Shown here: positions 25,501 through 52,074 of the stretch, in pieces
Layout: the number at the start of each line of letters is the position of its first letter
Numbering within the stretch: the stretch's first letter is position 1
Source of the DNA: Mustelus asterias
Lineage: Eukaryota
NCBI RefSeq assembly: GCF_964213995.1
Contig: NC_135811.1
Span: forward strand, 94,922,001-94,986,000
Reading direction: 5' to 3'
DNA: 64,000 nucleotides
Made by a program: the position numbers and the translations under genes
The notes under the pieces: model-generated
What the model saw: the letters and a program-made list of their open reading frames with translations, nothing else
Told to the model about the DNA's origin: nothing
Database searches by the model: none

Positions 25501-28500
25501 CTTTCTCTGTTCCTTGATTCTCTCCATCAACAGGAAATCAGGAGCCTGACCTTTGGCCTATTGCTAGCTCTCTGGGGTCTGGAGAGTAAAACAGTCCAAT
25601 AATCCAGTAACTGAACTCCAGGATTTAGCGAGAATACCTCAATTTGTTCCAAAAAATAATCCCTCCCAACATTTAGTGCCAGATGCTAGCAGCATCTGAA
25701 ATGTACTAAAGTTCCACTTGTAGTCCCAGATTGTTTTGTGTTATTTTTGATGGGTTACCTTATTTTATTTGATAAATGAACATTTTAAGATCCTCGTTGC
25801 CTAAGACAGTAAGTGTATTTTAAGGTAAATGTCTACAGTAAAAGCTTCTAATCTCTTTAAAATGTGACTTATAAAACATGTTCCTAAATCCTTATTGCAT
25901 GCATTTTTTAAAGTTAGGAAATTTACTGGATTTCTAAATCATTGAGTAAATAAAACTCAGCTTAACTTTTTTTCTGTTTCAGATGATGAAGGATCTGAAG
26001 AATACTGGGCCACCTCCGACAATGGATGATCTCGATGTAAATATTCAACCACAGGGGAAGTGGTTTTAGTTAACACAGAGTCCAATTCCTTTCAACTTGT
26101 TGTAGTTGTCTCAACTGACCAAGATAACACATTCCAGCAAGAAGTAGAAAATGTCTCAATGTACATTCCTAAAAGTGTAAACCACAGGACAGATTTCCTC
26201 GGGCTGTTTGATCACTTGGGCATGGCAAATACAGAAAAAAAAACAGGCAGGAAGAATATCCTCTTGTAGGGCAGGCTGCCAATAATCTTAGGTGCGGGAA
26301 CTGGAAACTTTATTCTCTTGCGATGACATCTAATAAATGAGAGAAATACTTGGGGTGCAACCCTACGAAAAAATTCTAAATGCCAAATGAACAAGAACGC
26401 GGGAGAGAACGGCATGGGGGTTTTTTTTTGTCAAGCTGCGAGTGATAATCTTACGACACATAGTGCAACAAAAGAGCCCGGTCGCGATTCTCGCCAGTAG
26501 AAGGGGAGACAGAGCCTAAGCTTGCCGGTGAACAGTGCTTGGGACACCATTGCGGAGGTGCCCTGATCTCCTGCCAACAGCCCCTCCCACCCACCTCCCC
26601 ATAGACATCATCTACCCCCCCCCCCCCCACTGATCGGTCCCTGTGCTGATCCCTCCCTCACCCACACCCATCACCACCCCATTTGCCAATCACCCCCCAT
26701 CTAGCAGATTCCCCTCTCGCCGATCCCCATGTCATCTGCAGAGCTCCCCACCTCCTCTCAGGCCCCACTCACACTCAGGCACTGCCCTGGCGTAGTTATG
26801 GTGCGTGGTGGACAATGCTAGGTTGCCCAATGGGCACTGCCAGGCTGGCACTACCCCATGGGCACATGTCCCCGAACACTCAGGGGCTTTAATGGCCTCT
26901 GATTCCTCCCACATGGCCATCGTCAGGTCTCCATCGATGGGGACCATGAATGATTCACGCCGGCTAGACCTCCCACTGATGAGGAGGGAATATATCCAGG
27001 AGGCCATAATCGGCTGTGCCGGGTGCGTTAATGAATATTCAAATCAGCTTTGTGCTCTTAATTGGCATGAGGCTGATCCTGCCGGCAAAACTCAGCTGGG
27101 AAGATGGCTTTTGGCATAAGACCGGTTCGTGCCCAGTGGAAGAGTCTCATGCCCTTTCTTCCTGACTGGCTGCACCAATTGACCTGCGCTGCGGGCCAGA
27201 AAGATCGCGCCATTGCATTTATATAGCGCCTTTCGTGACCACTCGATGTCGCAAAGCACTCTTCAACCAATGAAGTACCTTTGAAATGTCGTCACTTTTG
27301 TGATGTAGGAAATATGGGAACCAATTTTCTCACAGAAAGCTCTCCCAAGCAGCAATGTGACAATGACCAGACCATCTGTTTAGTGATACTGACTGAGGGG
27401 GTAAATATTGGCCACATCACACAGGGCTACTCTTCATCAAAATAGTGCTGGGGATCTTTTATGTCCACCTTGGTTAATCCTCTCAGCTGAAAGACAAAGC
27501 CTCCAACAGTGTAGCATTCTCTCAGTACAGCTGAGCCTTGATATTAATGCTCAATCTTGGAGTCAGAACTGAACACAGATCCTTCAGACTCAGAGACACA
27601 GTGTTACCAACTGAGCCATGGCTGGGTATGCATGGCTCCATTCCTACTCAGTTATGAGCAATGCTGACCTTTTATTAGGGAGAGTATCTTGATAGGTGGC
27701 TCAGGCAACAAATGCCTGAGAATGGCCTGCCCTGTAGTATTGTGAAGTGGTGTGAGTCCGCCAAGAGATCAGTTGAAATGTCACCAAGACCTTTTGTTCC
27801 TTTGCTGCGTGGCAAAGGATTAGTAATTTTGAATATCTTTTTCGAGTGTTACCTGTGTTACATTAAGCAGGAGCAGCATTCCCTTTGGAAAGGAGAGGGC
27901 ATATTAGTGTGGGGAGTACAGTACAGAAATTCAAATCATAGATCATAGAATCCTACAGTGCAGAAGGAGGCCCTTCAGCCCATCAAGTCTGCACCGACCA
28001 CAATCCCATCCAGGCCCTATCCCCACAACCCCATGCATTAACCCTAGCTAGTCCTCCTGACACGAAGGGGCAATTTAGCATGGCCAATCCACCTAACCTG
28101 CACAACCTATCTCTGTGAGAGGAAACTAGAGCAGCCAGAGGAAACTCACGCAGACACGGGGAGAACGTGCAAACTCCACACAGACAGTGACCCAAGCCAG
28201 GAATCGAACCCAGGTCCCTGGTGCTGTGAGGCAGCAGTGCTAACCACTGTGCCACCGTGCTGGCCAGATGCCACCATGATTTCAATAAACCTGAATGGAA
28301 AAACGCTGTGATAACCCAACTGGTTCATCAATGTGCCTGGTCGGACCTACCTGTAGTTGATTCATTCAGTGTGGCCGGATTCTCTGACCTCGCCCGCAGA
28401 TGGGATTCTCCCGTCCCGTTGCGGTGAACGGAGATTTGGCTGAGCGCCAAATTCTCCGTCCTCGCTGGCAGCAGCGGCGGGGCATGAATGGCCAGAGAAT

Positions 28501-51945: not shown

Positions 51946-52074
51946 TTTGAGACCTCGGTGGTATCATGTACTCCAGCAGAGTTGAAAATCGCTGTCAATG
52001 GGAAAAAGGAAACTCTGAAAGGTTTTGATGTGATCCTTGAGGACACCTTACTGTTTCCAGAGGGAGGTGGACAG
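51946..52074 (+). CDS. AARSD1: AARSD1 exon 2 (FETSVVSCTPAELKIAVNGKKETLKGFDVILEDTLLFPEGGGQ)
   Basis: tttcAG acceptor, GTCAGA donor, phase 0/0. Confidence 0.94.

Follow-up and report, generated by a model that had tools for sequence, protein, structure and literature searches.

Does the PTGES3L-AARSD1 gene pair of a shark encode the read-through fusion known from mammals, and how old would the underlying splice junction be? We studied this question in a window of 64,000 nt, i.e., the whole stretch of DNA that was analysed (G000:C11:94922001-94986000 of the NCBI assembly). Its features are collected in Table 1.

An initial annotation of this DNA had placed PTGES3L exon 6 and AARSD1 exon 2 on the plus strand, both in phase 0, and had proposed that one splice from 26036 to 51946 yields an in-frame protein of CS/p23 and AlaX parts. 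Positions, strand and phase are as described. Exon 6 (54 nt, AG before and GT after) ends with PPPTMDDLD and exon 2 (129 nt, AG before) starts with FETSVVSC. The proposed protein also holds: a 17-exon chain that spans 1522-79841 in window numbering (loci L001-L002 supply what lies beyond 64000) has AG/GT at all introns, and its translation equals P0021 exactly (549/549). P0021 is the RefSeq protein XP_078080138.1 (549 aa), which uses the same splice. Since it maps without mismatch, the fusion is already a public gene model, which removes the novelty that the initial annotation had implied. P0021 is labelled Mustelus asterias, and its match confirms the shark origin of the DNA, which had been called probable. 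The observation is thus real, and it is already known both as a system (in mammals) and as a shark gene model.

Independent of the public model, motif scans detect PTGES3L exons 2, 4 and 5 upstream of exon 6. A homologue search with AARSD1 exon 2 returned Aarsd1 proteins of rays, sharks and fish for 17/21 candidates, and the cluster of these homologues contains shark proteins of 547-549 aa. AARSD1 lies directly downstream of PTGES3L on the same strand, with an assembly gap in between. Upstream of the pair, a RUN-domain gene and an intron-split RPL27 gene are found on the minus strand (G000:C11:94844979-94845491 and 94819307-94822656); in the human gene order, a RUNDC1-like gene and RPL27 neighbour PTGES3L-AARSD1, too.

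Table 1. Features of the PTGES3L-AARSD1 locus in window numbering.
Feature	Position	Strand	Basis or remark
PTGES3L exon 1, coding part, ATG at 1522	1522..1550	+	phase 2 donor; exact match to P0021 residues 1-10
PTGES3L exon 2, CS domain start	15033..15146	+	match to P0021, motif scan
PTGES3L exon 3	16393..16459	+	match to P0021
PTGES3L exon 4, WPRL motif	21177..21275	+	match to P0021, motif scan
PTGES3L exon 5, DFDNW motif, F111/W114 = human p23 F103/W106	23021..23107	+	match to P0021, alignment
PTGES3L exon 6	25983..26036	+	phase-0 donor of fused model
PTGES3L exon 7 (DEPLDSV)	29075..29099	+	stop TAA 29096-29098, donor 29100; tail same as P0019, P0212
PTGES3L exon 8, 3' UTR of stand-alone mRNA	33807..34200 (3' end approximate)	+	acceptor; AATAAA at 34105, 34175
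32-bp tandem repeat, left gap edge	45195..45341	.	repeat analysis
Assembly gap, 200 N	45342..45541	.	probable site of missing AARSD1 promoter and exon 1
14-bp C-rich tandem repeat, right gap edge	45637..46264	.	repeat analysis
Reverse-transcriptase fragment of retroelement	46458..46844	+	Pfam RVT_1, E 1.9e-15
AARSD1 exon 2	51946..52074	+	phase-0 acceptor common to short and fused form
AARSD1 exon 3, first His of HxxxH zinc motif	56397..56556	+	match to P0021; spliced to exon 2 in contigs of X1, X10
AARSD1 exon 4	59911..59968	+	match to P0021
AARSD1 exon 5	62222..62378	+	match to P0021; exons 6-12 beyond window (loci L001-L002)

Between the two genes, no recognisable gene had been seen. This is true in so far as a Pfam scan of the interval's ORFs of at least 75 aa (small exons would escape it, and it omits the ORF that contains exon 2 as well as repeat ORFs next to the gap) yields a single match among 70, the RVT_1 piece of a retroelement, and Rfam gives no match in the window. 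What had been overlooked are PTGES3L exons 7 and 8, which sit inside the interval and must both be skipped by the fusion. The stand-alone PTGES3L has 157 aa and is terminated by the exon 7 stop. In P0280 and P0287, the tails of exon 6-to-8 isoforms correspond to the first codons of exon 8.

The 3' part of PTGES3L offers some further observations. The open frame of exon 8 (33807-33900) resembles annotated exon 6-to-8 isoform tails of Heterodontus and Carcharodon, and exon 8 is the positional match of the last coding exon of p23. Reading past the exon 6 donor (26037-26069) adds 10 residues before a stop; carpet-shark models (VNIEPY) and a skate model (VNIQP) end at this point, such that an intron-retaining or alternative last exon after exon 6 may be conserved. 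The aligned sequences hardly differ in the P.MDDL motif that immediately precedes the junction, but differ freely in the tail encoded by exon 7.

Given the 200-N gap, neither length nor content of the interval is fixed by the assembly. In other sharks, AARSD1 exon 1 encodes a leader of MAFQCQ type. An ATG..GT scan and searches with motifs, peptide and patterns (tolerating 2-3 mismatches only) failed to detect it in the interval or in G000, and so did a fuzzy scan, whose best hit is 19/32 where 10 shuffles give 18-19. The AARSD1 promoter and exon 1 are probably located inside the gap. With exon 1 absent from the assembly, the public gene model may hide a short housekeeping form of AARSD1. The fusion architecture had been described as intact; frame, junction and motifs are, but the word overstates the case because exon 1 is missing and the gap separates the genes. 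Elsewhere in the genome, intronless AARSD1 pieces with about 90% identity occur on C1 (L041:4722-4949), C3203 (L043:4527-4754) and C25 (L042:4862-5010), with identical matches on C1 and C3203. We rejected them as junction records, since none extends beyond parts of exons 8-11 or 9-11; they are internal mRNA pieces inserted among repeats.

How much does the phase match say? Among all pairs of PTGES3L donor and AARSD1 acceptor exons, 32/66 are in frame, i.e., a phase match alone is close to a coin toss. A phase-0 intron likewise follows exon 6 in the p23 paralogue on C75. The match is weak evidence and is ancestral to the p23 family. The recurrence of one junction across species is better evidence than phase.

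The gene identities given initially are borne out by the P0021 match and by a midpoint-rooted IQ-TREE phylogeny of the CS region with 58 rows, one of which (P0348) is out of register after trimming. The window gene groups with chondrichthyan PTGES3L (99/97) within a jawed-vertebrate PTGES3L clade (95/95) that includes the human and mouse fusions, and PTGES3 is separate from this clade (92/93). The upstream gene is PTGES3L and not p23/PTGES3, for which there is a separate gene on G000:C75. No AARSD1 match is present in 80 kb around that p23 gene. PTGES3 and PTGES3L presumably derive from a vertebrate genome duplication. The protein P0351 (172 aa, PTMDDLD tail, long branch) is sister to all jawed-vertebrate PTGES3L (94/96) and, from its tree position and tail, may be a jawless-fish PTGES3L; its cluster look-up gives Chordata-level clusters only. 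Lamprey p23-like proteins attach weakly (88/84). The shark p23 (G000:C75:15537602-15537700, L022) reads FNNWSEC compared to FNNWKDW in most p23, and the second Trp of this motif is also altered in the p23 of Narcine (P0260). A match on C24 belongs to another CS-like protein (about 40% identity).

Within P0021, Pfam identifies CS at residues 14-87 (26.7 bits vs. a cut-off of 21.3) and tRNA_SAD at 332-374, also above its cut-off. The alignment equates the shark's F111 and W114 with F103 and W106 of human p23, and this Hsp90-binding pair is invariant in 30/30 aligned PTGES3L sequences. Both zinc motifs are intact (HxxxH 245-249, CxxxH 345-349), such that the features of AlaX-L, i.e., HxxxH and CxxxH with an editing domain plus C-Ala, are present. 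The AlphaFold2 model of the fusion (40 sequences; pLDDT 76, pTM 0.50) shows a CS sandwich, a helix at 120-139, a loose low-confidence linker and the AlaX barrel from residue 151, and predicts no fixed CS-AlaX packing. Fold matches of the model are AlaX, AlaRS and p23 (1EJF, 7KRJ). In the model of the short form, residues 1-7 are of low confidence and the first strand starts from residue 13; thus, the splice removes the leader only. By analogy, the shark fusion would bind Hsp90, deacylate Ser-tRNA and act in muscle.

To what extent is the fused form shared? A search with residues 1-200 gave 239 matches among 425 candidates, and the best 120 of the 239 are led by proteins of 540-555 aa from mammals, birds, turtles, squamates, frogs, gar, bowfin and teleosts. 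In total, 101/450 retrieved proteins carry both the CS-tail motif and the AlaX motif FPEGGGQ, although they are not independent (many close kin, most computed models). From mammals to teleosts, 87 of these 101 join directly at the point used in shark and human; 14 have extra sequence in between. All three products, i.e., the fusion and the short forms of AARSD1 and PTGES3L, co-occur in clusters of frog, gar, cichlid and tuna. Within the 50% representatives, a search with residues 1-200 and vertebrate-biased motifs revealed no invertebrate-like fusion among the best 150, where both parts occur in P0100 and P0228 only. The lamprey cluster examined is p23-like and unfused.

For cartilaginous fish with named Aarsd1, a fused model is known for 5/20, namely Mustelus, Stegostoma, Cetorhinus, Hemiscyllium and Narcine (sharks and one ray), and none was seen for 15/20 among the proteins listed; for the shark cluster, these cover 15 of 22 members. 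All five are computed models from NCBI sources only, none with a Logan source. Logan-only batoid proteins among the matches listed are all short (11 of 412 aa, one of 235 aa, 8 of 149 aa), and the Logan-only proteins of fusion length listed there are mammal-like (P0100, P0109, P0115). For Stegostoma and Narcine, short and fused isoforms are both annotated, i.e., the fusion there is not forced by a missing exon 1. A chimaera has PTGES3L (P0299).

A comparison of synteny among chondrichthyans had been suggested as a check. Here, PTGES3L and AARSD1 are numbered consecutively (accessions or locus tags) in Scyliorhinus torazame, S. canicula, Leucoraja, Amblyraja, Carcharodon and Heterodontus, which is adjacency by number and says nothing on orientation. 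Adjacency is therefore independent of the 200-N gap. Together with the tree, the distribution of fusions supports the initial suggestion that the tandem arrangement goes back to the jawed-vertebrate ancestor.

A transcript search had been proposed for the junction. Contigs of four runs (X1, X6, X7, X10) were compared with 51700-52240, i.e., the exon 2 side only. Exon 2 is covered by contigs of X1 (1857 nt, 2 differing letters) and X10 (1653 nt, 1 differing letter), which run on into exon 3; their organisms differ in 1-2 of 131 bases over exon 2. Both start in sequence that we read by eye as AARSD1's own exon 1, such that exon 1-2-3 is the only order seen, and the short form is spliced in two related organisms. 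The fusion junction is absent from these two contigs, and contigs drop rarer forms. X6 and X7 do not cover exon 2 and hence have no bearing on either form. Since contigs show presence and not absence, what they prove is the short form in two relatives. A run search with 33700-34300 returned 10 rows (5 guessed RNA, none RNA-confirmed), which carries no weight on expression. Sharks likely express the fusion, for which matching phases alone are no proof, as the initial annotation had cautioned.

Our preferred explanation is a shark orthologue of the mammalian PTGES3L-AARSD1 locus, i.e., two tandem genes with likely three products: PTGES3L (157 aa), AARSD1/AlaX (about 412 aa) and the fusion (549 aa). 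Transcription from the PTGES3L promoter would sometimes pass the poly(A) signals of exon 8, and the exon 6 donor would then be spliced to AARSD1 exon 2, the first AARSD1 acceptor downstream. Exon 7 with its stop, exon 8 and AARSD1 exon 1 would be skipped, the latter because it is a first exon without acceptor. Such a splice would swap PTGES3L's short acidic tail and AlaX's leader of 13 residues without disrupting either fold. If it acts like mouse Aarsd1L, the fusion would bind closed Hsp90 via its CS domain in striated muscle, replacing p23, and would carry the Ser-tRNA editing module of AlaX. Exon structure, open frame, orthology, intact motifs and a junction identical to the human one are observed, and we have good confidence that an orthologous tandem locus whose read-through fusion is a muscle p23-like Hsp90 co-chaperone with editing module describes the case. 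A point against it is that, in this genome, the lack of exon 1 might be what drives a gene predictor towards the fused form.

This point leads to the opposing reading that the genes are conserved neighbours and the shark fusion amounts to no more than an annotation product or leaky read-through, i.e., a mammalian protein copied onto phase-compatible exons where exon 1 is absent from G000. It would account for the missing junction contig in X1 and X10, for the many listed species without fused model, for shark fusions without Logan source and for a phase match at chance level (32/66). Furthermore, gene order extends to the RUNDC1-like and RPL27 neighbours, such that synteny need not reflect fusion. 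We nevertheless regard this reading as unlikely, given that short and fused isoforms are annotated at one junction in Stegostoma, Narcine, frogs, gar and teleosts. RefSeq alternative isoforms usually rest on transcript evidence. Another reading is a true loss of exon 1 in this shark with AlaX made only as fusion. The blank peptide, pattern and fuzzy searches of interval and genome (19/32 vs. 18-19 for shuffles) would fit, but the patterns allow only 2-3 mismatches, the gap lies between tandem repeats at the expected exon 1 site, and organisms 1-2/131 bases apart over exon 2 splice a normal exon 1, which makes such a loss highly improbable.

A different question is what the fusion does. Its main job could be the tuning of Ser-tRNA editing by AlaX, with the p23-like part as cis regulator instead of a muscle Hsp90 co-chaperone; this concerns function and is compatible with the architecture of the preferred explanation. 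According to PMC11260482, a protein fused to the N-terminus of mouse AlaX regulates its activity, and the zinc motifs of the shark protein are intact. On the other hand, the same paper attributes editing activity to human AlaX, the AARSD1 product, the F/W pair is invariant in 30/30 PTGES3L sequences, and the predicted fusion lacks a fixed CS-AlaX packing. We thus consider such a regulatory main role doubtful.

Returning to the tandem locus with read-through fusion, the remaining interest is the age of the junction. The system is known and probably as old as jawed vertebrates. We lean towards the view that the read-through product is expressed and under selection, and that it goes back to the last common ancestor of all jawed vertebrates, since when sharks, rays, teleosts, frogs, birds and humans have retained a single junction. 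If so, few conjoined genes would be as old, and this one would link Hsp90 chaperoning in muscle with the proofreading of tRNA; its origin may be even earlier if P0351 is the PTGES3L of a jawless fish and adjoins AARSD1. It is common to discount read-through transcripts as noise. Conservation of a junction throughout jawed vertebrates would point to a function and would make zebrafish-type or shark models available for Aarsd1L. With the mammalian system published and the shark fusion in RefSeq, the gain is an evolutionary footnote unless junction reads appear.

Among the papers listed, our literature search found nothing on the evolution of the locus or on the locus outside mammals, and no paper stating a jawed-vertebrate age; Echeverria 2016 and Nawaz 2011 may discuss these. 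These two are the primary papers, and Nawaz 2011 is the source cited in PMC11260482 for the regulation of mouse AlaX by an N-terminally fused protein. Several publications cover the mammalian side. In mouse myotubes, Aarsd1L replaces p23 and binds Hsp90-beta (PMC9496497, PMC12225491); mammalian muscle expression and Hsp90-beta data are also reviewed in PMC9538636. Human p23 needs F103/W106 for Hsp90 binding, where its tail helix has a role as well (PMC7864943), and the human read-through is catalogued as coding (PMC5793191). According to a conjoined-gene survey, human junctions are not conserved in fish, frog or lamprey in a test that required 90% DNA identity (PMC2953495). Related literature is PMC3158927.

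Compared with known systems, the human PTGES3L-AARSD1 read-through (P0163, P0162, P0164; NP_079543.1, NP_001129514.2) and mouse Aarsd1L have the same gene order as the shark. The human fusion P0163 shares the junction (MDDLD followed by F.T.VVSC) and the domain order CS, AlaX editing and C-Ala, with an identity of 66.7% overall, 59.6% in the CS part and 69.6% in the AlaX part. The shark differs from human and mouse by exon 1, which adds MSVSEETDY, and by its stand-alone tail DEPLDSV in place of DDSDSADDATSN-type tails. In the reviews, mouse is the only species for which expression and a role in muscle are described. P0021 is letter for letter the fusion proposed initially, but its RefSeq name is plain 'alanyl-tRNA editing protein Aarsd1' and not read-through; the fused models of Stegostoma, Cetorhinus, Hemiscyllium and Narcine are computed like P0021. 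With p23/PTGES3 (1EJF, 7KRJ), PTGES3L has in common the CS fold, F/W motif, tail helix, eight-exon layout and phase-0 intron 6, whereas p23 forms a separate clade, is encoded on G000:C75, shows 49-50% identity and ends with MPDLE. Finally, AlaX-L (human AARSD1 P0161; 3KEW, 2E1B and 9IUW are shorter relatives) has the editing domain with HxxxH/CxxxH and the C-terminal C-Ala-like part just as the fusion, in which a CS domain stands at the N-terminus and the 13-residue leader is absent.
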